A DNA stretch of 64,000 nt from Escherichia coli (GTDB taxonomy: Bacteria; Pseudomonadota; Gammaproteobacteria; Enterobacterales; Enterobacteriaceae), in the NCBI RefSeq assembly GCF_009931435.1, contig NZ_CP043414.1. One strand, written 5' to 3'. The notes beneath the pieces were generated by a model that was not told where the DNA came from, searched no databases, and was given only the letters and a program-made list of their open reading frames with translations. Every line of letters begins with the position of its first letter. Positions within the stretch are counted from its first letter, which is position 1. Both the position numbers and the translations under genes were made by a program. This document shows, piece after piece, positions 3,632-49,576 of this stretch.

Positions 3632-3642
3632 AGAGCGGTTGA

Positions 3643-3665
3643 TGCCGGATGCGATGCATCCGGCA
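3643..3665. terminator. inverted repeat between convergent malQ and gntT
   Basis: Palindrome tgccggatgc/gcatccggca between two convergent stop codons; weak T-run. Confidence 0.3.
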
Positions 3666-3675
3666 GTCAGTATTA

Positions 3676-4992
3676 TCAAATCACCATATTCAGCAGCAGA
3701 CAGCCTACCAGACCGCACACCGAGATAATGGTTTCCAGCATCGACCAGGACTTGATGGTCTCGCCGATAGTCAGGTTAAAGTACTCTTTGAACAGCCAGA
3801 AGCCCGGATCGTTCACGTGAGAGAAAATCACACTACCGGAACCAACCGCAATAACCATCAGTTCCGGGCTAACACCCGTCGTTGCAATTAGTGGTGCCGC
3901 GATACCCCCCGCAGTGATTGCCGCAACGGTTGCGGAACCCAGCGCGATACGCAGTACGGCGGCAATCGACCAGGCCATCAGCAGCGGAGAAATGTTGGTT
4001 TCGTGCATCATGGAAGCAATGTATTTGTCCACGCCGCTGTCTACCAGCACCTGCTTGAACGCACCGCCACCACCGATGATCAACAGCATCATCGCGATGA
4101 TTTTGATGGAAGAAACCAGCGTGTCGTTAATCTGATCCATTGAACGACCACGGTTCAGACCAAAGGTGAACATCGCAATCAACACGGCAATCAGCGTTGC
4201 CATTACCGGGTCACCGAGGAACTCCGCCACTGGCAGGAAAGCGTGACCTTTCGGCAGGATCATTTCGGCAATTGCACGCATCGCCATCAGCACAACCGGC
4301 ACCAGAGAAGTCCAGACGCTGACGCCAAAGCTTGGCATCTCTTCTTCGCTGAAGGTTTTCGCGCTGTACAGACCTTCCGGGATTGGCTTATCGATACCTT
4401 TCAGCACGCGAGCGTAAACCGGACCCGCGAGAATAACGGTCGGGATTGCCAGAATAGTCCCGTACAGCAGGGTTTTACCCATATCGGCATTGAAAATGGT
4501 GGCAATCGCAGTTGGGCCCGGATGTGGCGGCAGGAAGCCGTGGGTCACAGACAGCGCAGCCGCCATTGGTACACCAACATACAGCAGCGGAATATTCGCG
4601 GAAGCCGCGATGGTAAACACCAGCGGCAGCATTAGCACGAAGCCCACTTCATAGAACAGGGCAAAACCGACAGTAAAACCGGTTAACACTACCGCCCATT
4701 GGATGTGTTTTTTACCAAATTTGGCAATCAGCGTGGTGGCGATACGTTGTGCACCACCGCAGTCTGCCAGCATTTTGCCCAGCATCGCGCCAAAACCCAT
4801 GATCAGGGCAAGGCTACCGAGCGTCCCGCCGACACCAGCTTTGATGGAGCCAATAACTTTATCCAGCGGCATTCCCTGCATTAATCCAACAGCAAGCGCC
4901 ACGAGGACGAGAGCGATGAATCCGTTCATTTTGAAGCGGATCATCAGGAGCAACAACAAGATTACACCGATAGCAACAATGACTAATGGCAT
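3676..4992 (-). CDS. gntT: high-affinity gluconate:H+ symporter
   Basis: 438-aa hydrophobic ORF recognised as GntT; GntR-type operators upstream. Confidence 0.93.
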   Translation of the reverse strand: MPLVIVAIGVILLLLLMIRFKMNGFIALVLVALAVGLMQGMPLDKVIGSIKAGVGGTLGSLALIMGFGAMLGKMLADCGGAQRIATTLIAKFGKKHIQWAVVLTGFTVGFALFYEVGFVLMLPLVFTIAASANIPLLYVGVPMAAALSVTHGFLPPHPGPTAIATIFNADMGKTLLYGTILAIPTVILAGPVYARVLKGIDKPIPEGLYSAKTFSEEEMPSFGVSVWTSLVPVVLMAMRAIAEMILPKGHAFLPVAEFLGDPVMATLIAVLIAMFTFGLNRGRSMDQINDTLVSSIKIIAMMLLIIGGGGAFKQVLVDSGVDKYIASMMHETNISPLLMAWSIAAVLRIALGSATVAAITAGGIAAPLIATTGVSPELMVIAVGSGSVIFSHVNDPGFWLFKEYFNLTIGETIKSWSMLETIISVCGLVGCLLLNMVI

Positions 4993-5011
4993 GATTTACC
5001 TGGCCTTTCAT

Positions 5012-5029
5012 TTGTTATGGGTAACGTCA
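5012..5029 (-). promoter_or_regulatory. putative GntR operator (gntT leader)
   Basis: Minus-strand sequence gacgTTACCCATAACAaa resembles the GntR operator half-site pattern. Confidence 0.4.
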
Positions 5030-5148
5030 ATTTTCTGACGACAAACTCTAATTATCCCAATCGGGAACAGAGATATTGCGGCACCACGACTGATACCCAC
5101 TAAAACTAATTATTGTAGTCAGATGTCAGGAGTATGTTTGGTACCCGC

Positions 5149-5168
5149 GTGAATGATACGGGTAACAT
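5149..5168 (-). promoter_or_regulatory. putative GntR operator (gntT promoter)
   Basis: Minus-strand ATGTTACCCGTATCATTCAC matches the gntT GntR operator as I recall it. Confidence 0.5.
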
Positions 5169-5289
5169 CTGGCGTTTGAGAATCACCAGAGCGGGGTAAA
5201 TTTAAATTATGAGAGGTTGGTCATATTATCGCGGGGAAACGTAGGGACTGGATTTGCCGAGGCAATGTAGCGCCAACGCCTGGCAGACG

Positions 5290-5322
5290 GCCCGATAAGA
5301 CGCTTTAGCGTCGCATCGGGCA
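5290..5322. repeat. REP-like extragenic palindrome
   Basis: gcccgataagacgctttagcgtcgcatcgggca; imperfect palindrome of the REP family between nfuA and gntT. Confidence 0.5.
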
Positions 5323-5343
5323 ATCTATAAAAGAGAGGATAAC

Positions 5344-5919
5344 TTAGTAGTAAGAGTGTTCGCCGCGCTGGTGTTCGGTGAGATCGCGTACACCTTTCAG
5401 CTCCGGGAATTCGTTCAGCAGCTGCTTTTCGATCCCTTCTTTCAGCGTCACATCGACCATTGAACAACCGTTACAACCGCCGCCAAATTGCAGAATGGCG
5501 TAACCGTCTTCGGTGATTTCCATCAGCGAAACGCGACCACCGTGACCGGCAAGCTGTGGGTTGATCTGCGACTGCAGCATATACTCCACGCGCTCCATCA
5601 GCGGCGCATCGTCAGCTACTTTGCGCATTTTGGCGTTTGGGGCTTTCAGCGTCAGCTGAGAACCCAACTGGTCGGTAACAAAGTCGATCTCTGCATCTTC
5701 CAGGTAAGGCGCGCTTAACTCATCAACATACGCGGTCAGCAGGTCAAATTTCAGGGCAGTGTCGGTGGCTTCCACAGCGTCCGGCGGACAATAAGAAACG
5801 CCACATTCAGCGTTAGGCGTGCCAGGGTTAATCACAAATACGCGGATTTGTGTCCCTTCTTCCTGATTTGCCAGCAGTTTGGCAAAGTGCGCTTGTGCAG
5901 CATCGGAAATACGGATCAT
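5344..5919 (-). CDS. nfuA: Fe-S cluster carrier protein NfuA
   Basis: 191-aa ORF; C-terminal Nfu CxxC motif ([10 protein letters not shown]); recognised as NfuA. Confidence 0.93.
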
Positions 5920-5977
5920 AGTAATGGCCTAATAGTTGACTATTTTAGTTGGTTATAATACGCCCATCATCGAGGCT

Positions 5978-6679
<702 letters not shown>

Positions 6680-6680
6680 A

Positions 6681-7469
<789 letters not shown>

Positions 7470-7497
7470 ACAGCTGTTGAAATGGCGAGACAGAACT

Positions 7498-8376
7498 TTA
7501 CTGGCTCGCCGCAGCCAACTCCTCTTCTGACACCCCGGTAAAACGCATGATGTCCGCAAGAGGGACTCCGGATTCAAGCATTATTTTTGCTATATGCAAG
7601 GCTTTGGATTGTTCCCCCTCTTGCCGCAATCTTTCCGCAATAGTCATTAAACTCTCCTTGTGTTTCGGTGAACGTTCGGCCACACCATCGATAAAATCAT
7701 TAAAACGTACTGCATCGCCAGTTTGCAGTATGTAATTAAACAGCCCTTTGATTTGTCTGTCATTAGCGTATCCACTACTTAATAAGCAGGCCATTTGCTC
7801 TACCAGTCCCATCAGATCGCGTTGACGAATATGTTTTTGAATTAACTCCAGCAGCGCCATGCGTCGGTGCTGCATGATTTCATCATCAGGCATGACGGTG
7901 ACATCAATCAGCGGAAATGCAGAGGCATAAAGCTGCCTTGCCAGTTTGGGATCGGCGAAACAATCAAGCCAACACAGCGAATAGGGATAGGGGCTTTCAA
8001 TACCATGGTAAAACAACAATGGCACCACCATCGGCAACGTTTTGTATCCGGCATCCAGGTGATTTTGCATTGCGGCAATGGCGTAACGCATCATGCGAAA
8101 TGCGATCAGTTTGTTTGAGGTGCTTTGATGTTCAATCAGACAATAGATATATCCCGGTCCTTGTTCCGTTTTCACCGACCACAGCACGTCGGAATAGCTT
8201 TCACGCAGATCGTCATCAATAAAGCTGCTCGACTCCAGCTTGAGGGTTTTCATATCACAGAGCGCGTGAATAGGTGCCGGTAAATGGAACGCAAGAAAAT
8301 CGCGCGCCGTCTCCGGTTGGCGTAAAAAGAGTTTGAACAGCGCATCGTGTGGGGTGGAACTCTGCTTTTTGCTCAT
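7498..8376 (-). CDS. rpnA: Rpn (transposase_31/PD-(D/E)xK) family recombination-promoting nuclease
   Basis: 292-aa ORF recognised as YhgA/RpnA; conserved core-genome position between bioH and feoC. Confidence 0.85.
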
Positions 8377-35745: not shown

Positions 35746-36834
35746 ATGGAGAGGATTGTCGTTACTCTCGGGGAACGTAGTTACCCAATTACCATCGCAT
35801 CTGGTTTGTTTAATGAACCAGCTTCATTCTTACCGCTGAAATCGGGCGAGCAGGTTATGTTGGTCACCAACGAAACCCTGGCTCCTCTGTATCTCGATAA
35901 GGTCCGCGGCGTACTTGAACAGGCGGGTGTTAACGTCGATAGCGTTATCCTCCCTGACGGCGAGCAGTATAAAAGCCTGGCTGTACTCGATACCGTTTTT
36001 ACGGCGTTGTTACAAAAGCCGCATGGTCGCGATACTACGCTGGTGGCGCTTGGCGGCGGCGTAGTGGGCGATCTGACCGGCTTCGCGGCGGCGAGTTATC
36101 AGCGTGGTGTACGTTTCATTCAAGTCCCGACGACGTTACTGTCGCAGGTCGATTCCTCCGTTGGCGGCAAAACTGCGGTCAACCATCCCCTCGGTAAAAA
36201 CATGATTGGCGCGTTCTACCAGCCAGCTTCAGTGGTAGTGGATCTCGACTGTCTGAAAACGCTTCCCCCGCGTGAGTTAGCGTCGGGGCTGGCAGAAGTC
36301 ATCAAATACGGCATTATTCTTGACGGTGCGTTTTTTAACTGGCTGGAAGAGAATCTGGATGCGTTGTTGCGTCTGGACGGTCCGGCAATGGCGTACTGTA
36401 TTCGCCGTTGTTGTGAACTGAAGGCAGAAGTTGTCGCCGCCGACGAGCGCGAAACCGGGTTACGTGCTTTACTGAATCTGGGACACACCTTTGGTCATGC
36501 CATTGAAGCTGAAATGGGGTATGGCAATTGGTTACACGGTGAAGCGGTTGCTGCGGGTATGGTGATGGCGGCGCGGACGTCGGAACGTCTCGGGCAGTTT
36601 AGTTCTGCCGAAACGCAGCGTATTATAACCCTGCTCACGCGGGCTGGGTTACCGGTCAATGGGCCGCGCGAAATGTCCGCGCAGGCGTATTTACCGCATA
36701 TGCTGCGTGACAAGAAAGTCCTTGCGGGAGAGATGCGCTTAATTCTTCCGTTGGCAATTGGTAAGAGTGAAGTTCGCAGCGGCGTTTCGCACGAGCTTGT
36801 TCTTAATGCCATTGCCGATTGTCAATCAGCGTAA
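35746..36834 (+). CDS. aroB: 3-dehydroquinate synthase
   Basis: 362 aa recognised as AroB. Confidence 0.95.
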
Positions 36835-36925
36835 CAACAAGAAAGGTCAGGCCGCTTATCAAGCGGTCTATTAGCTTCAGGTTAATTGCAACGTGGTAAG
36901 CATTAACCTTTTAGTGGGGTGTTAA

Positions 36926-38212
36926 ATGGATGAATTCAAACCAGAAGACGAGCTGAAACCCGATCCCAGCGATCGTCGTACTGGTCGTTCTCGTCAATCT
37001 TCTGAACGTTCTGAGCGTACTGAACGTGGCGAACCGCAGATCAATTTTGATGATATTGAACTTGATGACACTGACGATCGCCGTCCGACTCGTGCGCAAA
37101 AAGAGCGCAATGAGGAACCGGAAATCGAAGAAGAAATTGACGAATCCGAAGATGAAACCGTGGATGAAGAGCGCGTAGAGCGTCGTCCGCGTAAGCGCAA
37201 AAAAGCAGCCAGTAAACCCGCTTCTCGTCAGTATATGATGATGGGCGTCGGCATTCTGGTTCTCCTGCTGTTGATCATCGGTATCGGTTCTGCGCTAAAA
37301 GCCCCCTCGACCTCTTCCAGCGATCAAACCGCGTCTGGCGAGAAGAGTATTGATCTTGCTGGCAATGCGACCGATCAGGCGAATGGCGTGCAGCCAGCGC
37401 CGGGAACCACGTCTGCGGAAAATACTCAGCAGGATGTTTCTCTGCCGCCGATCTCTTCTACGCCGACTCAAGGGCAAACCCCGGCGGCAACGGATGGTCA
37501 ACAACGTGTTGAAGTGCAGGGTGACCTGAACAATGCGCTGACCCAGCCACAAAATCAGCAACAGTTGAATAATGTGGCGGTCAATTCCACGTTGCCGACT
37601 GAACCCGCGACGGTCGCGCCTGTTCGCAATGGCAATGCATCGCGTGACACGGCGAAAACGCAAACCGCTGAACGTCCGGCCACTACGCGTCCAGCTCGCC
37701 AGCAGGCGGTGATTGAACCGAAAAAACCGCAAGCAACCGTGAAAACGGAACCGAAGCCGGTAGCACAGACGCCGAAGCGTACTGAACCAGCTGCTCCTGT
37801 GGCGAGCACGAAGGCACCGGCTGCGACCTCTACGTCAGCACCAAAAGAGACCGCAACTACGGCTCCAGTACAGACGGCATCCCCGGCGCAAACCACGGCA
37901 ACACCAGCCGCTGGAGGGAAGACCGCAGGTAATGTTGGTTCGTTGAAATCGGCACCGTCCAGCCATTACACTTTGCAGCTGAGCAGTTCCTCTAACTACG
38001 ACAACCTGAACGGTTGGGCGAAGAAAGAGAATCTGAAAAACTACGTTGTCTATGAAACGACGCGTAATGGTCAGCCGTGGTATGTCCTGGTTTCTGGCGT
38101 GTACGCTTCGAAAGAAGAGGCGAAAAAAGCGGTATCTACATTGCCAGCAGATGTCCAGGCCAAAAACCCGTGGGCGAAACCGCTGCGTCAGGTACAGGCC
38201 GATCTGAAGTAA
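36926..38212 (+). CDS. damX: cell division protein DamX (SPOR domain)
   Basis: 428 aa; acidic N-terminus, single TM, Pro/Thr/Ala/Gln-rich linker, C-terminal SPOR-like domain. Confidence 0.93.
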
Positions 38213-38318
38213 TCAAGGTTATCTCCCGCAATGGTTTATCATCGCGGGAGTTGCCTGAAGCGCTGGATGCTGTCGGAGCTTTCTCCACAGCCGGAGAAGG
38301 TGTAATTAGTTAGTCAGC

Positions 38319-39155
38319 ATGAAGAAAAATCGCGCTTTTTTGAAGTGGGCAGGGGGCAAGTATCCCCTGCTTGATGATATTAAACGGCATTTGCCCAAGG
38401 GCGAATGTCTGGTTGAGCCTTTTGTAGGTGCCGGGTCGGTGTTTCTCAACACCGACTTTTCTCGTTATATCCTTGCCGATATCAATAGCGACCTGATCAG
38501 TCTCTATAACATTGTGAAGATGCGTACTGATGAGTACGTACAGGCCGCACGCGAGCTGTTTGTTCCCGAAACAAATTGCGCCGAGGTTTACTATCAGTTC
38601 CGCGAAGAGTTCAACAAAAGCCAGGATCCGTTCCGTCGGGCGGTACTGTTTTTATATTTGAACCGCTACGGTTACAACGGCCTGTGTCGTTACAATCTGC
38701 GCGGTGAGTTTAACGTGCCGTTTGGCCGCTACAAAAAACCCTATTTCCCGGAAGCAGAGTTGTATCACTTCGCTGAAAAAGCGCAGAATGCCTTTTTCTA
38801 TTGTGAGTCTTACGCCGATAGCATGGCGCGCGCAGATGATGCATCCGTCGTCTATTGCGATCCGCCTTATGCGCCGCTGTCTGCGACCGCCAACTTTACG
38901 GCGTATCACACAAACAGTTTTACGCTTGAACAACAAGCGCATCTGGCGGAGATCGCCGAAGGTCTGGTTGAGCGCCATATTCCAGTGCTGATCTCCAATC
39001 ACGATACGATGTTAACGCGTGAGTGGTATCAGCGCGCAAAATTGCATGTCGTCAAAGTTCGACGCAGTATAAGCAGCAACGGCGGCACACGTAAAAAGGT
39101 GGACGAACTGCTGGCTTTGTACAAACCAGGAGTCGTTTCACCCGCGAAAAAATAA
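38319..39155 (+). CDS. dam: DNA adenine methyltransferase (GATC)
   Basis: 278 aa; DPPY catalytic motif (YCDPPYAPL). Confidence 0.96.
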
Positions 39156-39172
39156 TTCTCAAGGAGAAGCGG

Positions 39173-39850
39173 ATGAAACAGTATTTGATTGCCCCCTCAA
39201 TTCTGTCGGCTGATTTTGCCCGCCTGGGTGAAGATACCGCAAAAGCCCTGGCAGCTGGCGCTGATGTCGTGCATTTTGACGTCATGGATAACCACTATGT
39301 TCCCAATCTGACGATTGGGCCAATGGTGCTGAAATCTCTGCGTAATTATGGCATTACTGCCCCTATTGATGTGCATCTGATGGTGAAACCGGTCGATCGC
39401 ATTGTGCCAGATTTCGCTGCCGCTGGTGCCAGCATCATAACCTTTCATCCAGAAGCCTCCGAGCATGTTGACCGCACGCTGCAACTGATTAAAGAAAATG
39501 GCTGTAAAGCGGGGCTGGTATTTAACCCGGCGACACCGCTGAGCTATCTGGATTACGTGATGGATAAGCTGGATGTGATCCTGCTGATGTCCGTCAACCC
39601 TGGTTTCGGCGGTCAGTCTTTCATTCCTCAAACACTGGATAAACTGCGCGAAGTACGTCGTCGTATCGACGAGTCTGGCTTCGACATTCGACTGGAAGTG
39701 GACGGCGGCGTGAAGGTGAACAACATTGGCGAAATCGCTGCGGCAGGTGCCGATATGTTCGTCGCTGGTTCGGCCATTTTCGATCAGCCAGACTACAAAA
39801 AGGTCATTGATGAAATGCGCAGTGAACTGGCAAAGGTAAGTCATGAATAA
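39173..39850 (+). CDS. rpe: ribulose-phosphate 3-epimerase
   Basis: 225 aa recognised as Rpe. Confidence 0.95.
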
Positions 39851-40601
39851 GTTTGAAGATATTCGCGGCGTCGCTTTTGATCTCGATGGTACGCTGGTGG
39901 ACAGTGCTCCTGGTCTGGCTGCTGCGGTAGATATGGCGCTGTATGCGCTGGAGTTGCCCGTCGCAGGTGAAGAGCGTGTTATTACCTGGATTGGTAATGG
40001 CGCAGATGTTCTGATGGAGCGAGCATTGACCTGGGCGCGTCAGGAACGTGCGACTCTGCGTAAAACAATGGGTAAACCGCCCGTTGATGACGACATTCCG
40101 GCAGAAGAACAGGTACGTATTCTGCGTAAACTGTTCGATCGCTACTATGGCGAGGTTGCCGAAGAGGGGACGTTTTTGTTCCCGCACGTTGCCGATACGC
40201 TTGGCGCATTGCAGGCAAAAGGCCTGCCGCTAGGTCTGGTCACCAACAAACCGACGCCGTTCGTCGCGCCACTGCTCGAAGCCTTAGATATCGCAAAATA
40301 CTTTAGCGTGGTCATTGGCGGCGATGATGTGCAAAACAAAAAACCGCATCCGGACCCACTGTTACTGGTGGCTGAGCGGATGGGCATTGCCCCACAACAG
40401 ATGCTGTTTGTTGGCGACTCACGCAATGATATTCAGGCAGCAAAAGCAGCTGGTTGCCCTTCTGTTGGTTTAACCTATGGATATAACTACGGCGAGGCTA
40501 TCGATCTTAGCCAGCCTGATGTAATTTATCAGTCTATAAATGACCTTCTGCCCGCATTAGGGCTTCCGCATAGCGAAAATCAGGAATCGAAAAATGACTA
40601 A
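39843..40601 (+). CDS. gph: phosphoglycolate phosphatase
   Basis: 252 aa; HAD motif FDLDGTL; overlaps rpe and trpS. Confidence 0.94.
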
Positions 40602-41598
40602 GCCCATCGTTTTTAGTGGCGCACAGCCCTCAGGTGAATTGACCATTGGTAACTACATGGGTGCGCTGCGTCAGTGGGTAAACATGCAGGATGACTACCA
40701 TTGCATTTACTGTATCGTTGACCAACATGCGATCACCGTGCGCCAGGATGCACAGAAGCTGCGTAAAGCAACACTGGATACGCTGGCGTTGTATCTGGCT
40801 TGTGGTATCGATCCTGAGAAAAGCACCATTTTTGTTCAGTCCCACGTGCCGGAACATGCGCAGTTAGGCTGGGCACTGAACTGCTATACCTACTTCGGCG
40901 AACTGAGCCGTATGACCCAGTTTAAAGACAAATCTGCGCGTTATGCCGAGAATATCAATGCTGGTCTGTTTGATTATCCGGTGCTGATGGCGGCGGATAT
41001 TCTACTGTATCAAACCAATCTGGTGCCGGTGGGTGAAGACCAGAAACAGCACCTGGAACTGAGCCGCGATATCGCTCAGCGTTTTAACGCGCTGTACGGC
41101 GACATTTTTAAAGTGCCGGAACCGTTTATTCCGAAATCCGGCGCGCGCGTAATGTCGCTGCTGGAGCCGACCAAGAAGATGTCCAAGTCTGACGATAATC
41201 GCAATAACGTTATCGGCCTGCTGGAAGATCCGAAATCGGTCGTGAAGAAAATCAAACGCGCGGTCACTGACTCCGACGAGCCGCCGGTAGTTCGCTACGA
41301 TGTGCAGAATAAAGCGGGCGTTTCCAACCTGCTGGATATTCTTTCTGCGGTAACTGGCCAGAGTATCCCGGAACTGGAAAAACAGTTCGAAGGCAAGATG
41401 TATGGTCATCTGAAAGGCGAAGTGGCTGATGCCGTTTCTGGTATGCTGACTGAATTGCAGGAACGTTATCACCGTTTCCGCAACGATGAAGCCTTCCTGC
41501 AACAGGTGATGAAAGACGGCGCGGAAAAAGCCAGTGCACACGCTTCTCGTACGCTGAAAGCGGTGTACGAAGCGATTGGTTTTGTGGCGAAGCCGTAA
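40594..41598 (+). CDS. trpS: tryptophan--tRNA ligase
   Basis: 334 aa; class I motifs (HIGN-type TIGNYMG, KMSKS). Confidence 0.96.
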
Positions 41599-41631
41599 TT
41601 CACTATTGCTGGCAAATTGCGCTTTGTTCAT

Positions 41632-41729
41632 GCCAGATGCGGCGTGAACGCCTTATCTGGCCTACAAAGTAATGCACATTCAACATATTGCAAGGAAATG
41701 TAGGCCTGATAAGCGTAGCGCATCAGGTA
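41632..41729. repeat. BIME (two inverted REP units)
   Basis: gccagatgcggcgtgaacgccttatctggcctac ... gtaggcctgataagcgtagcgcatcaggta. Confidence 0.7.
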
Positions 41730-41894
41730 ATTTTGCTTTTATCATCACTCTGAAACCGGGGAAACTCGGTTTTTTATCCTCTTTTCGCAACAACCCGAAA
41801 AAATGTGAAGCGCCTCGCCATTTCCATATCTCATAGTTGCCACTTATCTTCAATTTAATGAAGATATAAATATTCACTTTATTGAAAATTTACT

Positions 41895-42800
41895 ATGCGT
41901 CGAACGTTTATCAAAAAAGAAGGCGTCGTCATCACGACTCTGGCTCGTTATCTGTTAGGTGAAAAGTGCGGTAATCGACTGAAAACCATAGATGAACTGG
42001 CAACTGAATGCCATTCATCGGTTGGTCTGACACAGGCCGCGTTGAAAACGCTGGAATCAAGCGGAGCGATACGGATAGAACGCCGTGGGCGTAATGGCAG
42101 TTATCTGGTGGAAATGGATAACAAAGCGCTGCTGAGTCATGTGGATATCAACAATGTGGTATGTGCGATGCCCTTGCCCTATACCCGTTTGTACGAAGGC
42201 CTGGCGAGCGGATTGAAAGCCCAATTTGATGGCATTCCTTTTTACTATGCGCATATGCGCGGCGCGGATATTCGCGTGGAGTGTTTACTTAACGGCGTGT
42301 ATGACATGGCGGTGGTTTCCCGACTGGCGGCGGAAAGTTATCTCACGCAAAAAGGCTTATGCCTCGCGCTGGAGTTGGGGCCGCATACCTACGTTGGTGA
42401 GCATCAGTTGATTTGCCGTAAAGGAGAGGCTGCAAAGGTGAAACGCGTGGGGTTGGATAACCGTTCGGCGGATCAGAAAATTATGACCGATGTCTTTTTT
42501 GGCAGTAGCGATGTAGAACGTGTCGATCTCTCTTATCACGAGAGTTTACAACGCATTGTTAAAGGCGATGTCGATGCGGTGATCTGGAACGTGGTAGCGG
42601 AGAGCGAACTGGCCATGCTGGGATTAGAAGCGATGCCGCTGACGAACGATCCGCGATTTTTACAGGCCACTGAAGCCGTGATACTCACGCGTGCCGATGA
42701 TTACCCAATGCAACAACTGCTACGTACGGTTGTAGATAAACACGTCCTGCTTGCTCATCAACAGCGAGTAGTCAGTGGGGAACAGGAACCCAGTTATTAA
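41895..42800 (+). CDS. yhfZ: putative transcriptional regulator YhfZ
   Basis: 301-aa ORF recognised as YhfZ; first gene of the yhfZ-yhfS cluster. Confidence 0.85.
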   Translation: MRRTFIKKEGVVITTLARYLLGEKCGNRLKTIDELATECHSSVGLTQAALKTLESSGAIRIERRGRNGSYLVEMDNKALLSHVDINNVVCAMPLPYTRLYEGLASGLKAQFDGIPFYYAHMRGADIRVECLLNGVYDMAVVSRLAAESYLTQKGLCLALELGPHTYVGEHQLICRKGEAAKVKRVGLDNRSADQKIMTDVFFGSSDVERVDLSYHESLQRIVKGDVDAVIWNVVAESELAMLGLEAMPLTNDPRFLQATEAVILTRADDYPMQQLLRTVVDKHVLLAHQQRVVSGEQEPSY

Positions 42801-42816
42801 ACGAAAGGCATCTGAA

Positions 42817-43179
42817 ATGGAAACCAGACTCAACCTGCTTTGTGAGGCAGGCGTTATTGATAAGGACATCTGCAAAGGCATGATGCAGGTCGTCAACGTA
42901 CTGGAAACAGAGTGCCATCTACCGGTGCGCAGCGAGCAAGGAATGATGGCGATGACACATATGGCGAGCGCACTGATGCGCAGTCGCCGTGGTGAAGAAA
43001 TAGAGCCGCTGGATAACGAATTGCTGGCAGAGCTGGCGCAATCCAGCCACTGGTCAGCCATTTTACAATTGCATCAGGTGTTGTTGAAGGAATTCGCACT
43101 GGAAGTTAACCCGTGTGAAGAAGGCTATTTGCTGGCCAACCTTTATGGATTATGGATGGCTGCTAACGAAGAGGTTTGA
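42817..43179 (+). CDS. yhfY: PRD-like domain protein YhfY
   Basis: 120 aa from ATG at 42817 (METRLNLL); ORF track allows an earlier start at 42775. Confidence 0.78.
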   Translation: METRLNLLCEAGVIDKDICKGMMQVVNVLETECHLPVRSEQGMMAMTHMASALMRSRRGEEIEPLDNELLAELAQSSHWSAILQLHQVLLKEFALEVNPCEEGYLLANLYGLWMAANEEV

Positions 43180-43262
43180 GGCTCCCGACAAATCCACGTC
43201 GCACAACCTAAATATTCAAAAAAATGAATGTTTAATTCAAGGAACAGAAACGAGGCAACAAG

Positions 43263-44426
43263 ATGTTTGTAGAAGCATTGAAACGCCAGAACCCGGCACT
43301 GATTTCCGCCGCACTAAGATTGTGGCAACAGGGCAAGATCGCCCCGGACAGTTGGGTAATCGACGTCGATCAGGTACTGGAAAACGGTAAGCGGCTGATT
43401 GAGACTGCACGGCTTTACGGTATTGAACTGTATCTGATGACCAAACAGTTCGGTCGTAATCCGTGGCTGGCAGAAAAACTGCTGGCGCTGGGTTACAGCG
43501 GCATTGTGGCGGTGGATTACAAAGAGGCACGAATCATGCGCCGCGCAGGTTTACCGGTGGCGCATCAGGGGCATCTGGTGCAAATCCCTTGTCATCAGGT
43601 GTATGACGCTGTTGAACAGGGCACCGACGTCATCACCGTGTTTACACTCGACAAAGCGCGGGAAGTTTCTGCGGCAGCGGTGACGGCCGGGCGGGTCCAG
43701 CCTGTGCTGCTCAAAGTTTATAGCGACGATGATTTTCTTTATCCGGGGCAGGAGAGCGGTTTTGCACAGCATTCGCTGCATGAGGTGGTTGCTGAAATCC
43801 AGAAACTACCGGGGTTACATTTAGCCGGATTAACCCATTTCCCTTGCCTGCTATGGGATGAGGCTGCCGGGAAAGTTTTGCCAACACCGAACCTCCAGAC
43901 GCTGGTCAATGCTCGTAACCAACTTCTGAAGTCTGGAGTTGTACTTGAGCAATTAAACGCGCCTTCAGCGACCAGCTGCACTTCGCTGCCATTACTGGCG
44001 GAATACGGTGTGACTCATGCCGAACCCGGCCATGCGCTGACGGGGACGATTCCGGCAAACCAGCAGGGCGACCAGCCTGAACGTATCGCCATGCTTTGGT
44101 TAAGTGAAATTTCCCATCACTTCCGTGGCGACAGTTATTGCTATGGCGGTGGCTATTACCGTCGTGGGCATGCGCATAACGCACTGGTATTTACGCCAGA
44201 AAATCAAAGCATTACTGAAACATATCTCAAAGCCGTAGATGACAGCAGTATCGACTACACCCTGCCGCTGGCAGGCGAGCATTCGGTAAGCAGTGCTGTG
44301 GTGCTCTGCTTTCGCACGCAGATTTTTGTCAGCCGTAGCGATGTGGTGCTGGTGTCCGGTATTCACCGTGGCGAACCGGAAATCGTTGGTCGTTATGACA
44401 GTCTTGGAAGCTCTCTGGAGGCGTAA
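43263..44426 (+). CDS. yhfX: alanine racemase-fold PLP enzyme YhfX
   Basis: 387-aa ORF recognised as YhfX. Confidence 0.85.
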
Positions 44427-45652
44427 TGGCGCGATTTGTGGTGTTAGTGATTGATAGCTTTGGCGTAGGGGCAATGAAAGATGTCACGTTGGTGCGTCCG
44501 CAGGATGCCGGGGCGAATACCTGTGGTCACATCCTGAGCCAGTTGCCGCATTTACAGCTACCAACGCTGGAGAAAATGGGGCTAATCAACGCATTAGGTT
44601 ATGCGCCTGGCGATATGCAGCCGTCAGACTCCGCAACCTGGGGCGTTGCAGAGTTGCAACATGAAGGTGGCGACACCTTTATGGGGCATCAGGAAATTTT
44701 AGGCACGCGCCCGTTACCGCCGCTGCGGATGCCCTTTCGCGATGTGATTGACCGTGTTGAGCAGGCATTAGTCACCGCTGGCTGGCGGGTTGAGCGCCGT
44801 GGCGAAGAGTTGCAATTTCTGTGGGTTAATCAGTCGGTTGCCATTGGCGATAACCTCGAGGCGGATTTAGGCCAGGTCTATAACATCACCGCCAATCTCT
44901 CTGCGATCTCTTTTGACGACGCAATCAAAATTGGTCGTATCGTGCGTGAGCAGGTACAGGCCGGTCGGGTCATTACATTTGGCGGCCTGTTAACTGACAG
45001 TCAGCGCATTCTCGATGCCGCAGAAAGCAAAGAAGGGCGCTTTATTGGCATCAATGCGCCGCGTTCTGGCGCTTATGACAACGGTTTCCAGGTCGTACAT
45101 ATGGGCTATGGCGTCGATGAAAAAGTGCAGGTGCCGCACCAACTGCATCAAGTGGGCGTGCCCACGGTGCTGGTGGGTAAGGTGGCAGATATCGTCAGCA
45201 ATCCTTATGGCGTGAGCTGGCAAAACCTGGTGGATAGCCAGCGGATTATGGATATCACCCTCGACGAATTTAACACGCATCCGACGGCGTTTATTTGCAC
45301 CAATATCCAGGAAACCGACCTCGCTGGTCACGCAGAAGACGTCGCACGTTATGCCGAACGTTTGCAGGTCGTTGACCGTAACCTTGTCCGGCTTGTTGAG
45401 GCGATGCAGCCAGATGATTGCCTGGTCGTGATGGCGGATCACGGTAACGATCCGACCATTGGTCACAGCCACCATACCCGTGAAGTAGTGCCAGTGCTGG
45501 TTTATCAGCAAGGGCTGGTCCACACGCAACTCGGTGTGCGCACCACGCTTTCTGATGTGGGGGCTACCGTGTGTGAATTTTTCCGTGCGCCACCGCCACA
45601 AAATGGTCGCTCTTTTCTTTCCTCCCTCCGGTTTGCAGGAGACACCCTATGA
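44426..45652 (+). CDS. yhfW: phosphopentomutase-like (alkaline phosphatase superfamily) YhfW
   Basis: 408-aa ORF recognised as YhfW; overlaps yhfX and php. Confidence 0.85.
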
Positions 45653-46527
45653 GTTTTGATCCGACGGGCTTCACCCTCGCCCATGAGCATCTGCATATTG
45701 ATCTCTCCGGCTTTAAAAACAACGTGGACTGCCGCTTTGATCAGTATGCGTTCATTTGCCAGGAGATGAACGACCTGATGGCACTGGGTGTGCGTAATGT
45801 GATTGAGATGACCAACCGTTACATGGGGCGCAATGCACAATTTATGCTCGATGTAATGCACGAGACGGGGATCAACGTGGTGGCCTGCACCGGTTATTAC
45901 CAGGACGCGTTTTTCCCGCAACATGTGGCGACCCGCAGCGTGCAGGAACTGGCGCAGGAGATGGTCGATGAAATTGAACAGGGTATCGATGGCACGGAGC
46001 TGAAAGCCGGGATCATCGCGGAGATCGGCTCCAGCGAAGGAAAGATTACGCCGCTGGAAGAGAAGGTGTTTATTGCCGCCGCGTTGGCGCATAACCAGAC
46101 CGGATGCCCCATCTCCACGCATACGTCGTTCAGCACGATGGGGCTGGAGCAACTGGCTCTGTTGCAAGCCCACGGAGTTGATCTTTCGCGCGTCACCGTC
46201 GGGCACTGCGATCTGAAAGACAACCTCGACAACATTTTGAAGATGATCGATCTCGGCGCGTATGTACAGTTCGACACCATCGGCAAGAACAGTTACTACC
46301 CGGACGAAAAGCGCATTGCGATGCTTCATGCGCTACGCGACCGTGGGTTGCTTAACCGCGTCATGCTGTCGATGGATATTACGCGGCGCTCTCATTTAAA
46401 AGCCAACGGTGGTTATGGCTATGACTTTTTATTAACCACCTTTATTCCGCAATTGCGCCAGTCAGGATTCAGTCAGGCCGATGTGGATGTGATGTTACGT
46501 GAAAATCCCTCTCAATTTTTCCAATAA
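45649..46527 (+). CDS. php: phosphotriesterase homology protein
   Basis: 292 aa; N-terminal HxH metal-binding motif ([11 protein letters not shown]). Confidence 0.9.
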
Positions 46528-46537
46528 GGACAGACTC

Positions 46538-46891
46538 ATGAAAAAGATTGGCGTTGCAGGCTTACAGCGTGAGCAGATTAAAAAAACCATTGAAGCGACG
46601 GCTCCTGGCTGTTTTGAAGTTTTCATTCATAACGACATGGAAGCGGCGATGAAGGTGAAATCCGGGCAACTGGATTACTACATCGGCGCGTGTAATACCG
46701 GTGCGGGCGCGGCATTGTCGATTGCCATCGCGGTGATTGGGTATAACAAAAGTTGCACTATTGCTAAGCCGGGTATTAAAGCGAAAGACGAGCATATCGC
46801 CAAAATGGTTGCCGAAGGGAAAGTGGCGTTTGGGCTTTCCGTTGAGCACGTCGAACATGCGATTCCGATGCTGATTAACCATCTGAAATAA
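46538..46891 (+). CDS. yhfU: DUF2620 protein YhfU
   Basis: 117 aa from MKKIGVAG with AAGGA RBS; ORF track shows a 13-codon upstream extension. Confidence 0.82.
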   Translation: MKKIGVAGLQREQIKKTIEATAPGCFEVFIHNDMEAAMKVKSGQLDYYIGACNTGAGAALSIAIAVIGYNKSCTIAKPGIKAKDEHIAKMVAEGKVAFGLSVEHVEHAIPMLINHLK

Positions 46892-46902
46892 AAGGCACGA
46901 CT

Positions 46903-48207
46903 ATGGATCTGTATATTCAGATTATCGTGGTGGCGTGCCTGACGGGTATGACATCGCTTCTGGCGCATCGCTCGGCGGCTGTTTTTCATGACGGTATCCG
47001 CCCGATCCTGCCGCAACTGATTGAAGGCTATATGAACCGTCGCGAGGCGGGGAGTATCGCTTTTGGTCTGAGCATTGGTTTTGTGGCCTCGGTGGGGATC
47101 TCTTTTACCCTGAAAACCGGGTTGCTCAACGCATGGTTACTCTTTCTTCCTACCGATATCCTCGGTGTCCTGGCGATAAACAGCCTGATGGCGTTTGGCC
47201 TTGGTGCACTCTGGGGCGTACTGATCCTCACCTGCCTGCTGCCGGTAAACCAGCTGCTGACCGCGCTACCGGTGGATGTATTAGGTAGTCTGGGGGAATT
47301 AAGCTCGCCAGTGGTTTCAGCTTTTGCACTGTTCCCGTTGGTGGCGATTTTCTACCAGTTTGGCTGGAAGCAAAGTCTGATCGCCGCCGTGGTAGTGTTG
47401 ATGACCCGTGTGGTGGTAGTGCGCTATTTCCCGCATCTCAATCCGGAATCCATCGAAATCTTTATTGGCATGGTGATGCTGCTGGGGATCGCGATAACTC
47501 ACGACCTGCGTCATCGTGATGAAAATGACATCGATGCCAGCGGTATGTCGGTGTTTGAAGAACGTACGTCGAGGATTATCAAAAATTTACCCTATATCGC
47601 CATCGTAGGGGCGCTGATTGCCGCCGTTGCCAGCATGAAGATTTTTGCTGGTAGTGAAGTGTCGATCTTCACCCTGGAGAAAGCATATTCCGCAGGTGTA
47701 ACGCCGGAACAATCACAAACGCTGATCAACCAGGCGGCGCTGGCGGAATTTATGCGCGGGCTGGGTTTTGTGCCGTTGATTGCCACCACCGCGTTAGCAA
47801 CAGGTGTGTATGCAGTTGCGGGCTTTACCTTTGTTTATGCGGTGGGCTATCTCTCGCCGAATCCGATGATTGCAGCGGTATTAGGCGCAGTGGTTATTTC
47901 GGCGGAAGTCCTGTTACTTCGTTCGATCGGCAAATGGCTGGGACGCTATCCATCGGTACGTAACGCGTCGGATAACATCCGTAACGCCATGAATATGCTG
48001 ATGGAAGTGGCGTTGCTGGTCGGTTCGATTTTCGCAGCAATTAAAATGGCGGGCTATACCGGATTCTCCATCGCGGTTGCCATTTACTTCCTCAACGAAT
48101 CCCTGGGCCGTCCGGTACAGAAAATGGCGGCACCGGTCGTGGCAGTAATGATCACCGGTATTCTGCTGAATGTTCTTTACTGGCTTGGCCTGTTCGTTCC
48201 GGCTTAA
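46903..48207 (+). CDS. yhfT: inner membrane transporter-like protein YhfT
   Basis: 434-aa polytopic membrane protein. Confidence 0.85.
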   Translation: MDLYIQIIVVACLTGMTSLLAHRSAAVFHDGIRPILPQLIEGYMNRREAGSIAFGLSIGFVASVGISFTLKTGLLNAWLLFLPTDILGVLAINSLMAFGLGALWGVLILTCLLPVNQLLTALPVDVLGSLGELSSPVVSAFALFPLVAIFYQFGWKQSLIAAVVVLMTRVVVVRYFPHLNPESIEIFIGMVMLLGIAITHDLRHRDENDIDASGMSVFEERTSRIIKNLPYIAIVGALIAAVASMKIFAGSEVSIFTLEKAYSAGVTPEQSQTLINQAALAEFMRGLGFVPLIATTALATGVYAVAGFTFVYAVGYLSPNPMIAAVLGAVVISAEVLLLRSIGKWLGRYPSVRNASDNIRNAMNMLMEVALLVGSIFAAIKMAGYTGFSIAVAIYFLNESLGRPVQKMAAPVVAVMITGILLNVLYWLGLFVPA

Positions 48208-48218
48208 GGAAGGCACCT

Positions 48219-49304
48219 ATGAAGACGTTTCCTCTGCAAAGCCTGACGCTTATTGAGGCGCAGCAAAAGCAGTTTGCGCTGGTGGATAGCATTTGCCGTC
48301 ACTTTCCCGGCGCGGAGTTTCTTACCCGCGGGGATTTAGGCTTAACGCCAGGGCTGAATCAACCGCGCATTACCCAGCGTGTGGAACAGGTGCTGGCTGA
48401 CGCGTTTCATGCGCCAGCGGCGGCGCTGGTACAGGGCGCGGGTACTGGAGCGATTCGTGCGGCGTTGGCGGCTTTGCTCAAACCGGGGCAGCGTCTTCTG
48501 GTGCATGACGCGCCGGTTTACCCGACGACTCAGGTCATTATTGAGCAGATGGGGCTGACGCTTATTACTGCTGATTTCAACGACCTGTCGGCGCTTAAAC
48601 AGGCCATTGAAGAGCAACAACCTGATGCCGCGCTGGTGCAGCATACGCGCCAACAGCCGCAGGACAGCTATGTGCTGGCAGATGTGCTGGCAACATTGCG
48701 TTCGGCTGGCGTTCCTGCGTTAACCGATGACAATTATGCGGTGATGAAGGTGGCGCGCATTGGCTGCGAATGCGGCGCGAATGTTTCGACATTCTCCTGT
48801 TTCAAGCTGTTTGGACCAGAGGGTGTTGGCGCAGTGGTAGGTGATGCCGATGTTATTAACCGGATCCGCGCCACGCTCTATTCCGGCGGCAGTCAGATCC
48901 AGGGCGCACAGGCGCTGGAAGTATTGCGTGGTCTGGTGTTTGCGCCAGTGATGCACGCGGTGCAGGCGGGGGTATCTGAACGGTTGCTGGCTTTACTTAA
49001 CGGTGGCGCAGTGGCGGAAGTGAAAAGCGCCGTTATTGCCAATGCGCAGTCGAAGGTGTTGATTGTGGAGTTTCATCAACCGATTGCCGCCAGAGTGCTT
49101 GAAGAGGCGCAAAAGCGCGGTGCCTTGCCTTACCCGGTGGGTGCAGAGTCGAAATATGAAATCCCGCCGCTCTTCTATCGACTTTCAGGAACGTTTCGTC
49201 AGGCGAATCCACAACTCGAACATTGCGCGATTCGCATTAACCCGAATCGCAGCGGTGAAGAGACGGTGCTGCGGATTTTGCGTGAGAGTATTGCCAGCGT
49301 TTAA
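48219..49304 (+). CDS. yhfS: PLP-dependent aminotransferase-like protein YhfS
   Basis: 361-aa ORF recognised as YhfS; last gene of the cluster. Confidence 0.85.
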   Translation: MKTFPLQSLTLIEAQQKQFALVDSICRHFPGAEFLTRGDLGLTPGLNQPRITQRVEQVLADAFHAPAAALVQGAGTGAIRAALAALLKPGQRLLVHDAPVYPTTQVIIEQMGLTLITADFNDLSALKQAIEEQQPDAALVQHTRQQPQDSYVLADVLATLRSAGVPALTDDNYAVMKVARIGCECGANVSTFSCFKLFGPEGVGAVVGDADVINRIRATLYSGGSQIQGAQALEVLRGLVFAPVMHAVQAGVSERLLALLNGGAVAEVKSAVIANAQSKVLIVEFHQPIAARVLEEAQKRGALPYPVGAESKYEIPPLFYRLSGTFRQANPQLEHCAIRINPNRSGEETVLRILRESIASV

Positions 49305-49343
49305 TTCTGGGACCGATGTTTTCGCAGAGTATGGAGAAAAATA

Positions 49344-49367
49344 CGCCCTCGGAAAATTCAGAGGGCG
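49344..49367. terminator. bidirectional terminator between yhfS and yhfL
   Basis: cgccctc ggaaaattca gagggcg between two convergent stop codons. Confidence 0.6.
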
Positions 49368-49408
49368 TTAGCTCATTAAATCGGTGTTAGCCGATTTCTG
49401 TCAGAGAC

Positions 49409-49576
49409 TTACTGTGCAGTAGGACCGCAACCGCCAATGATTTTAGAAATAGAAATTGCCGGGTGCAGCAGGTAGTCGTAAGAGCAGTTCTTATCACGGT
49501 TTTCAATATGACCAGTACATGCAGTTAACGTAGCCAGTACCGCACCAACCAGTGCAACTTTAATAAATTTGTTCAT
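49409..49576 (-). CDS. yhfL: small lipoprotein YhfL
   Basis: 55-aa ORF (below ORF-track cutoff) translated by hand: MNKFIKVALVGAVLATLTACTGHIENRDKNCSYDYLLHPAISISKIIGGCGPTAQ; lipobox LTAC. Confidence 0.85.
   Translation of the reverse strand: MNKFIKVALVGAVLATLTACTGHIENRDKNCSYDYLLHPAISISKIIGGCGPTAQ

Follow-up and report, generated by a model that had tools for sequence, protein, structure and literature searches.

Modular structure and candidate regulation of the yhfZ-yhfS gene cluster of Escherichia coli, with a proposed catabolic role

Escherichia coli K-12 carries, next to trpS, a block of eight co-oriented genes, yhfZ to yhfS (b3383-b3376), and the same eight genes, with the same order, orientation, lengths, overlaps and site by trpS, are present on the plus strand at positions 41895-49304 of a 64,000-nucleotide stretch (the 64-kb window, in what follows) of the E. 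coli contig NZ_CP043414.1 (assembly GCF_009931435.1). The copy described here differs from that of K-12 in its nucleotide sequence, with a per-gene identity of 89.5-96.7% and an uneven, mosaic divergence, leaving 32 amino-acid differences in YhfX, 20 in YhfW and 15 in YhfS, and in its 3' surroundings, as the fructoselysine operon frlABCDR, which in K-12 stands between yhfS and yhfL-cysG, is absent and yhfS abuts yhfL-cysG directly. The locus is an ordinary, intact copy of a long-known E. coli cluster. The cluster is near-core in E. coli, and few intact gene blocks of comparable size still await a metabolic role in this most thoroughly studied of bacteria. Php has had a solved structure since 1998 but is still an orphan enzyme, and the structures of YhfX, YhfS and the C-terminal domain of YhfZ are likewise labelled "uncharacterized". 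What is added here is the module structure of the cluster, candidate operators, a site resembling those of the cAMP receptor protein (CRP), a fold for YhfU, the finding that YhfT is structurally novel and the residues retained in YhfW.

The genes, named after the RefSeq annotation of matching E. coli records together with Pfam and NCBIfam, are the following:

41895-42800, plus strand: yhfZ, 301 amino acids
42817-43179, plus strand: yhfY, 120 amino acids counted from the ATG (a longer GTG-initiated open reading frame, ORF, begins at 42775)
43263-44426, plus strand: yhfX, 387 amino acids
44426-45652, plus strand: yhfW, 408 amino acids
45649-46527, plus strand: php, 292 amino acids
46538-46891, plus strand: yhfU, 117 amino acids counted from the ATG (a longer GTG-initiated ORF begins at 46499)
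46903-48207, plus strand: yhfT, 434 amino acids
48219-49304, plus strand: yhfS, 361 amino acids

The initial annotation of the window had described eight co-oriented, intact genes with 1 nucleotide (nt) shared by yhfX and yhfW and a 4-nt overlap of yhfW with php, all of which is borne out by the ORF listing, its coordinates and the RefSeq annotation; the remaining gaps amount to 16 nt (yhfZ-yhfY), 83 nt (yhfY-yhfX), 10 nt (php-yhfU) and 11 nt each (yhfU-yhfT and yhfT-yhfS). Compared gene by gene with NC_000913.3, each of the eight ORFs has the length of its K-12 orthologue and contains no internal stop, and the cluster can therefore be called intact. By megablast, the stretch is covered to at least 80% in 5058 of the 5426 complete E. 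coli genomes, where it is annotated with the same gene names. The folds that had been listed agree with the Pfam, NCBIfam and PDB matches, but only seven functions had been offered for eight genes, yhfU (DUF2620) having been left undescribed.

Among the known systems compared are catabolic operons such as bgl/lic, which are PRD-regulated and linked to the phosphotransferase system (PTS), and the D-glucosaminate system (dga), in which an ammonia-lyase dependent on pyridoxal 5'-phosphate (PLP) acts on a phospho-amino-sugar acid. The likeness of the yhf cluster to them consists in a PRD module carrying a conserved, phosphorylatable histidine, probable phosphorylated intermediates, no kinase, a putative PLP chemistry on an amino-carbohydrate and the PTS genes that stand beside some of the clusters. 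In contrast to them, the PRD of YhfY stands alone (120 amino acids) without an RNA- or DNA-binding domain, the regulator of the cluster is of the GntR type, the E. coli cluster has no dedicated EII genes, YhfT is not an EIIC, and YhfS is not SelA/DgaE-like by sequence.

Proposed function and the proteins of the cluster

The reading that we propose, and to which we would give an even chance, is that of a catabolic cluster, controlled by YhfZ and CRP and linked to the PTS, for a compound that joins a phosphorylated carbohydrate to an alpha-amino function, with YhfT-YhfU as the uptake module. Several lines of evidence point this way. The CRP-like site suggests carbon catabolism, and the PRD protein together with neighbouring PTS genes suggests a link to PTS sugars. 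Phosphorylated, carbohydrate-like intermediates are suggested by the phosphomutase, the RpiB fold, the hydrolase, a NagB insertion and a Cof phosphatase in related loci and the lack of a kinase. That the compound also has an alpha-amino function is suggested by the two PLP enzymes and by genes for an amidase-like protein and for binding proteins of the amino-acid type. The hydrolase family to which Php belongs has phospho-sugar lactonases among its characterised members. As to the substrate class, a phosphorylated amino-sugar, amino-sugar-acid or sugar-amino-acid conjugate (or a derivative of a glycated amino acid), possibly acylated, would fit, the compound probably being phosphorylated on import or already before it. 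Any one specific substrate is far less probable than this general model. The catabolic role put forward in the initial annotation is thus supported by the conserved CRP-like site and the genomic contexts, and its statement that the substrate is not established holds as well: no pathway assignment was found in the open-access full-text literature, the RefSeq names of the K-12 genes still read "putative" or "uncharacterized", and a screen of January 2026 still counts yhfW among the uncharacterized genes.

In the scheme that follows from this reading, YhfZ would repress its own promoter through two operators (O1 and O2) and the enzyme genes through a third (O3) until an inducer binds to its C-terminal domain, while CRP-cAMP would activate the yhfZ promoter and YhfY would report the phosphorylation state of the PTS through His48. 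Import of the compound would fall to YhfT together with YhfU, its obligate partner in the cytoplasm, and YhfU would capture or isomerise the compound by means of the Cys-Thr loop of its RpiB-type fold. Php would then hydrolyse an ester or lactone of the phosphorylated intermediate, YhfW would shift or remove the phosphate, and YhfX, joined by YhfS where present, would process the amino-bearing carbon with PLP. Each substrate and each reaction step in this scheme is one that we infer.

Among characterised proteins, YhfW is most closely related to the phosphopentomutases (E about 1e-30). With the DeoB of Bacillus cereus (PDB 3M8W) it shares the same alkaline-phosphatase-type core, and the motifs DS-x-G-x-G, GxDT-x-x-GH, D-x-x-GH, ADHGND and HTRE all match; we take these to supply the Asp/His metal ligands and the Thr nucleophile. 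In contrast, the cap (substrate) domain aligns weakly, and a deoB gene is present elsewhere in E. coli. PRK12383, the model made for YhfW itself, is the only one that it passes (729 bits), as it stays below the cut-offs of the DeoB equivalogs TIGR01696 (141 vs 341 bits) and NF003766 (179 vs 256 bits). By this alignment, YhfW is a phosphopentomutase paralogue of the alkaline-phosphatase superfamily with all of the catalytic residues kept. Php matches the PTE family of Pfam (PF02126) over its full length (residues 1-292, 483.5 bits, E 3.5e-145), is near-identical to PDB 4LEF and 1BF6 (E 8e-192), and has the same (beta/alpha)8 binuclear-metal amidohydrolase fold as the lactonases and esterases of cog1735 (such as the phospho-furanose lactonases of the Lmo2620 type and the phosphotriesterase-like lactonases). 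It differs from the characterised equivalogs in scoring far below their cut-offs, with 104 vs 500 bits for OPH and 100.9 vs 630 bits for the phospho-furanose lactonase. Php is said to lack phosphotriesterase activity (Buchbinder et al., 1998), and the Raushel group reportedly described in Biochemistry in 2018, in a substrate profile of Php, a hydrolysis of phosphorylated glyceryl acetates of modest efficiency. This would point to a preference of Php for acyl esters of phosphorylated small polyols or sugars, without amounting to a physiological assignment.

The two PLP enzymes are both remote from characterised relatives. YhfX, with the Pfam domains Ala_racemase_N (PF01168, 74.8 bits) and YhfX-like_C and an invariant Lys61, has a structure deposited as "uncharacterized" (PDB 4KBX); its family profile finds alanine racemase (9e-4), YggS (1e-3), D-Thr aldolase (0.04) and D-threo-3-hydroxyaspartate dehydratase (1.9) in the PDB, and a weak NCBIfam match is to ornithine racemase. 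While some sources label it a "predicted amino acid racemase", no characterised subfamily fits, and YhfX is a family of its own among the fold-type-III PLP enzymes. A profile search for further contexts of YhfX homologues gave only close relatives among the matches listed and nothing on function. YhfS (YhfS-like_C and Aminotran_1_2; PDB 4J8L, again "uncharacterized") belongs to the PLP enzymes of fold type I, among which it is distinct; the Cys/Met gamma-family comes nearest to it, with methionine gamma-lyase and O-succinylhomoserine sulfhydrylase as the closest families.

YhfU is a cytoplasmic protein with the RpiB/LacAB sugar-phosphate-isomerase fold. By sequence this likeness is not seen, as no Pfam LacAB_rpiB match is found and phmmer gives an E of 0.6, and YhfU further differs from RpiB/LacAB in being about 30 residues shorter and in being encoded directly 5' of yhfT, a position that it always occupies. 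The protein is unusually well conserved, the E. coli and Vibrio forms being 62-80% identical. What is conserved of RpiB in the YhfU alignment is the invariant Cys52-x-Thr54 loop; where RpiB has its histidine, the aligned YhfU position varies, and no conserved counterpart is seen for His99 and the C-terminal phosphate-binding arginines, which we take to be important in RpiB. YhfT is a polytopic membrane protein (PF10797), confidently modelled and presumed to be a permease, for which no solved structural relative was found; its family is rare, with 306 representative clusters among 1.84 billion proteins. The PDB holds nothing for YhfY, YhfU or YhfT, and its entries for the C-terminal domain of YhfZ and for YhfX, Php and YhfS go by the names "hypothetical", "uncharacterized" or "homology protein". 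The pair was also compared with PTS components: YhfT as an EIIC-like permease was rejected, having no fold or sequence similarity to EIIC, and so was YhfU as an EIIB, since its fold matches RpiB far better and the N-terminal loop has no Cys. A bolder proposal, which we consider quite unlikely, is that YhfT and YhfU make up a new two-part uptake system in which the membrane protein is paired with an obligate RpiB-fold partner bearing the invariant Cys. This partner would isomerise or phosphorylate the incoming substrate and so trap it, and the system, supervised by the stand-alone PRD protein, would be a kind of group translocation distinct from that of the canonical EIIB/EIIC families. If true, the importance of such a transport principle would reach beyond E. 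coli.

Of the two regulatory proteins, YhfZ is a transcription regulator of the GntR type in which Pfam recognises an HTH_41 domain and, for ligand binding, a YhfZ_C domain; it passes the NCBIfam model NF041241 YhfZ_full (372 bits against a cut-off of 260) and whose C-terminal domain is covered by PDB 2OZZ. YhfY is a stand-alone PRD-like protein, with a Pfam PRD score of 18 bits that lies below the gathering score of 23; an unmarked, precomputed PRD match is present in its homologues from three metagenome loci (L011, L093 and L094). Across 13 diverse sequences the motif His48-x3-Ala52-x2-Arg55 is invariant, and the second PRD histidine is Asn in Proteobacteria and His in two distant homologues. 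YhfY keeps the phospho-histidine motif of the PRD, with His48 as a putative phosphorylation site that would link YhfY to the PTS.

Candidate operators and transcription units

A generic scan of the window was uninformative with regard to regulation (3 promoter-like sites vs 8.7 expected and 11 terminator-like sites vs 9.9 expected), and phylogenetic footprinting was used instead. Aligned across genera, the yhfY-yhfX spacer has one island of identity, TAAATATTCAAAAAAATGAATATTTAA. The palindrome AATATTCA-N6-TGAATATT, allowing up to 3 mismatches, has 2 matches in the 64-kb window, directly 5' of yhfZ and of yhfX, and a relaxed consensus (ATHTTCA-N6-TGAADAT) has 3, designated O1, O2 and O3, where 0.07 would be expected. 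The sites are as follows:

41804-41819, plus strand: CRP-like site TGTGAAGCGCCTCGCC (TGTGA-N6-TCxCC), a candidate for binding of CRP
41838-41843, plus strand: -35-like hexamer TTGCCA of a putative yhfZ promoter, its TTG invariant in the alignment; the consensus promoter scan did not call it
41846-41865, plus strand: operator-like palindrome O1, ATCTTCAATTTAATGAAGAT, over the yhfZ promoter and conserved in enterobacterial genera
41870-41889, plus strand: operator-like palindrome O2, ATATTCACTTTATTGAAAAT, with 5 nt between its end and the ATG of yhfZ
43212-43231, plus strand: operator-like palindrome O3, ATATTCAAAAAAATGAATGT, in the yhfY-yhfX spacer and ending about 31 nt before the yhfX ATG

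In the alignment of the region upstream of yhfZ from 10 enterobacterial genera, the TGTGA and the TC of the right half of the CRP-like site are invariant and the flanks divergent. The position of O2 is the same in most Enterobacteriaceae loci and shifts to 72-88 nt 5' of yhfZ in Yersinia. The comparison with other species took in about 100 related loci, among them 80 genome loci and several metagenome loci. In the 80 genome loci, with up to 2 mismatches allowed, every match of the palindrome except one sits 5' of a yhf gene, in most cases either at the O2-type position before yhfZ or 30-40 nt before yhfX. A palindrome of the O3 type is found 30-40 nt 5' of yhfX in 38 of these loci, from Escherichia, Citrobacter, Klebsiella, Trabulsiella, Buttiauxella, Cedecea, Yersinia and Ewingella, and in the Vibrionaceae the form ATCTTCA-N6-TGAAGAT stands 10-19 nt 5' of yhfZ (21 of 31 loci). 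No DNA-binding protein other than YhfZ accompanies these palindromes from locus to locus, and we infer that it is YhfZ that binds O1-O3.

With O1 and O2 lying over the core promoter, activation by CRP combined with repression, and thereby autoregulation, by YhfZ would be the simplest model. Nearly all loci have a spacer of 80-230 nt before yhfX, and one published operon table groups only php, yhfS, yhfT, yhfU, yhfW and yhfX, leaving out yhfZ and yhfY. This table, together with the O3-bearing spacer, suggests a second regulated unit, yhfXW-php-yhfUTS, and from the sequence an arrangement in two such units (yhfZY and yhfXW-php-yhfUTS) appears at least as likely as a single operon. The candidate operators and the CRP-like site provide handles for reporters and inducer screens, and a deletion of yhfZ is a possible way of switching on the genes of the cluster. 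The separable modules and the structural hypothesis for the hitherto blank DUF2620 are further handles for experiment.

Conserved modules and neighbouring genes

The genome loci were obtained by scanning 100,044 species genomes with peptide patterns of YhfU and mapping the eight proteins onto the resulting 80 loci, all of which belong to the Enterobacterales or Vibrionaceae, a limitation that is due to the strictness of the patterns. With P for php and the last letter for each yhf gene, the architectures are:

ZYXWPUTS: 31 of 80 loci
ZYPUTXW: 20 of 80 loci
ZYXPUT: 7 of 80 loci
Z(Y)PUT: 5 of 80 loci
ZYXWPUT: 4 of 80 loci
UTXW: 3 of 80 loci

Across Enterobacterales and Vibrionaceae, php-yhfU-yhfT and yhfX-yhfW are near-invariant blocks (median gaps of 11 nt from yhfU to yhfT and of -1 from yhfX to yhfW), and the pairs yhfU-yhfT and yhfX-yhfW are kept in the distant metagenome loci as well. 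On the other hand, yhfS is missing from the clusters of Vibrionaceae, Yersinia and Aeromonas and yhfW from most of those in Yersinia, and the tblastn matches are fragmentary in C. koseri NCTC10786 and one Trabulsiella genome. The metagenome loci, whose YhfT has an identity of only 27-38%, repeat the clustering of the same families:

L011: PRD-U-T-P-X-W with a Cof-type HAD phosphatase
L093: PRD-P-U-T-X-W with a cellobiose-type PTS IIC
L094: PRD-U-T-P-S-X
a further metagenome locus: W-X-U-T
a further metagenome locus: X-U-T with a GntR/UTRA regulator
L097, contig positions 3565-15156: Z, probable Y, T, amidase-like gene, U, T, P, S, X, W and two SBP_bac_3 genes

The last of these unites all eight families in one locus, together with a second yhfT, the amidase-like gene lying between the two yhfT copies, and a single genome (L008) has the U-T pair alone between housekeeping genes. 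From this comparison the units of the cluster are [yhfU-yhfT], [yhfX-yhfW], php and the regulators, with yhfS and yhfW being optional. The eight genes, which the initial annotation took for one compact pathway, are not an indivisible set: yhfS and yhfW are dispensable in some lineages, and in Enterovibrio the set is split. The idea that YhfS is a purely enterobacterial add-on was rejected: besides the Enterobacteriaceae, YhfS-like genes occur in the two distant metagenome clusters L094 and L097.

Two yhfU-yhfT pairs are present in Enterovibrio, one in Z-Y-P-U-T loci (L056, L060 and L063) and the other in U-T-X-W loci (L083, L061 and L079), and likewise in Photobacterium lipolyticum (L062/L064). 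The Z(Y)PUT and UTXW loci co-occur within the same Enterovibrio genomes, which implies that php and yhfX-yhfW can each work with a U-T pair of their own; the YhfT of the Z-Y-P-U-T loci in these two-pair genomes is only 47-51% identical to that of E. coli.

As for the genes outside the core eight, no recurrent extra gene family, and thus no kinase, stands beside the cluster in the 80 genome loci, and no kinase was found in the metagenome loci examined. Several lineages have neighbours of their own. In Vibrio comitans (L004/L073, 1953-11671) a sulfatase, an anaerobic sulfatase-maturase (radical-SAM) and a putative outer-membrane protein are followed by yhfY-yhfX-yhfW-nagB equivalog-yhfU-yhfT, with php about 5 kb upstream of this variant operon and a palindrome, AATATTCAATATTTTGAATATA, 130 nt 5' of yhfU. 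Some 10 Vibrionaceae clusters (L065, at 3504-7579, as well as L059, L062, L064, L066, L082 and L084-L087) have a Lac/Chb-type PTS IIB-IIC-IIA set beside them, accompanied in 8 of the 10 by a 296-amino-acid protein of the family DUF7916, which has no NCBIfam name, and in L065 also by a porin-like gene. A secreted family is found beside yhf clusters of Photobacterium, Aeromonas and Pluralibacter (L064, 1502-3697; L006, 8784-9776); its N-terminal domain has no Pfam match, and in the long form a chitin-binding CBM5/12 module is added at the C-terminus.

Competing explanations, divergence and chromosomal setting

Several observations weigh against the proposed catabolic function. The amino-sugar-type neighbours (NagB, the sulfatase and the Chb-type PTS) are lineage-specific and could be a coincidence. 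Apart from the Cys-Thr loop, YhfU is without the catalytic and phosphate-binding residues of RpiB and its chain is shorter, so that it is perhaps no isomerase at all. For YhfT, similarity to a characterised transporter was not found, and its presumed permease role is drawn from its polytopic topology, a weak internal repeat and its context. The separation of php from yhfX-yhfW in Enterovibrio implies that Php and YhfX/YhfW need not share a linear pathway. No K-12 phenotype for the cluster is reported in the papers searched.

An explanation that we consider unlikely is the salvage of a pentose or of a nucleoside-derived compound, in which YhfW would act as a pentose-phosphate mutase (from the 1-phosphate to the 5-phosphate) and YhfU as an RpiB-type isomerase on a modified ribose, such as a ribosyl-amino-acid conjugate (S-ribosylhomocysteine-like), whose amino-acid part would be cleaved by the PLP enzymes. 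It agrees with the kinship and retained catalytic residues of YhfW, with RpiB as the nearest fold of YhfU, with the relatives of YhfS in sulfur amino-acid metabolism named above and with a distant YhfT homologue (L096) that adjoins a methylthioadenosine/S-adenosylhomocysteine nucleosidase, but this neighbour is a single case and the locus is without YhfU. Moreover, no nucleoside phosphorylase, nucleosidase or kinase lies within any yhf-type cluster, YhfW is far below the deoB equivalog cut-off and missing from most Yersinia clusters, as YhfS is from most lineages, and YhfU is tied to the membrane protein and not to YhfW, as the isolated U-T pair of L008 illustrates. Catabolism of an amino acid proper (a D- or basic one, for example), with YhfT as permease, YhfX as racemase, YhfS as aminotransferase and the phospho-enzymes in side roles, is very unlikely in our view: while the two PLP enzymes, the racemase label and weak ornithine racemase match of YhfX, a Firmicute YhfT that adjoins a gene of the Orn/Lys/Arg-decarboxylase family and the SBP_bac_3 genes of L097 would all suit it, it leaves the near-invariant Php, YhfU and YhfW, the PRD protein and the PTS and NagB neighbours unexplained, and the distance of YhfX from the racemases (E 1e-3) is no smaller than that from YggS and its family.

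That the cluster is a cryptic, decaying remnant without current function in E. coli is highly improbable. The amino-acid divergence above that of the flanks (32 of 387 residues of YhfX differ from K-12), the fragmentary matches in C. koseri and Trabulsiella, the loss of yhfW in Yersinia and the lack of a phenotype in the searched literature could be taken as signs of decay, but all eight genes are intact here, the coverage of complete E. coli genomes is nearly general and the regulatory sites are conserved across genera. The ratio of nonsynonymous to synonymous substitution rates (dN/dS) lies between 0.015 and 0.18 in all eight genes, with yhfU (0.015) and yhfT (0.024) as constrained as trpS or cysG and yhfZ at 0.067, and these low values indicate that the cluster is maintained by selection. 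Least probable among the explanations considered is a cluster for detoxification of organophosphates, phosphonates or xenobiotic esters or for phosphorus scavenging, as might be supposed from the membership of Php in the PTE family and of YhfW in the alkaline-phosphatase superfamily, from weak matches of YhfW to PhpG, a phosphonate-related member of its superfamily (E 5e-6), and of YhfS to 2-aminoethylphosphonate transaminase (E 0.007), and from periplasmic acid phosphatases 3' of the cluster in two genomes. Against it, the phosphonate-type matches are far below their cut-offs, as is the score of Php for OPH, and Php reportedly has no phosphotriesterase activity; the promoter shows a CRP-like site and no evident Pho box. 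Carbohydrate catabolism is what the PRD protein points to, and likewise the RpiB-like fold, NagB and the genes of the PTS.

With respect to its sequence, the cluster stands apart from its surroundings: in megablast against the complete E. coli genomes its identity is 90-95% for most of them and does not exceed 97.4%, and strains whose flanks (36000-41600) match at 99.6% match the cluster at about 96.5%. That the window might come from a non-coli Escherichia was considered in view of this low identity and rejected, since the genes flanking the cluster reach 99.6% identity with E. coli. The synonymous divergence (dS) from gene to gene is 0.10-0.36 in the cluster, with yhfZ, yhfX and yhfS at 0.31-0.36, compared with 0.17-0.22 in the flanks, and this unevenness marks the cluster as a mosaic, recombining, divergent allele, which suggests recombination with more distant Escherichia lineages.

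On its 3' side, yhfS is convergent with yhfL (49409-49576, minus strand), which is followed by cysG and nirC; on its 5' side lie rpe-gph-trpS. The hairpins and repeats of the two flanks are:

49343-49368, between the convergent yhfS and yhfL: hairpin ACGCCCTC-N10-GAGGGCGT, read from the sequence
41753-41775, plus strand: terminator-like hairpin and T-run after trpS, read from the sequence, separating the cluster from the rpe-gph-trpS unit
about 41626-41707: two elements resembling repetitive extragenic palindromes (REP) or bacterial interspersed mosaic elements (BIME), in the trpS-yhfZ spacer

The first hairpin has a T-run on the side of the minus strand only and would therefore terminate yhfL well but the yhf transcript only weakly; it went uncalled in the terminator scan because its 10-nt loop exceeds the 8-nt limit of the scan. 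No obvious strong intrinsic terminator is seen downstream of yhfS. In the alignment of the upstream region, E. albertii and Citrobacter share the hairpin after trpS. The spacers were also searched for riboswitches and other known RNA elements, an idea that was rejected: with Rfam hits accepted up to an E of 1, the trpS-yhfZ spacer had nothing beyond sub-threshold matches related to REP, and the yhfY-yhfX spacer had no match. The matches in the former, at 41626-41707, were to naRNA4, at 35.5 bits where the gathering score is 59.5, and, also sub-threshold, to ES036. A survey of 2010 lists yhfZ among the genes with BIME repeats on their 5' side, BIMEs being proposed there as attenuators.

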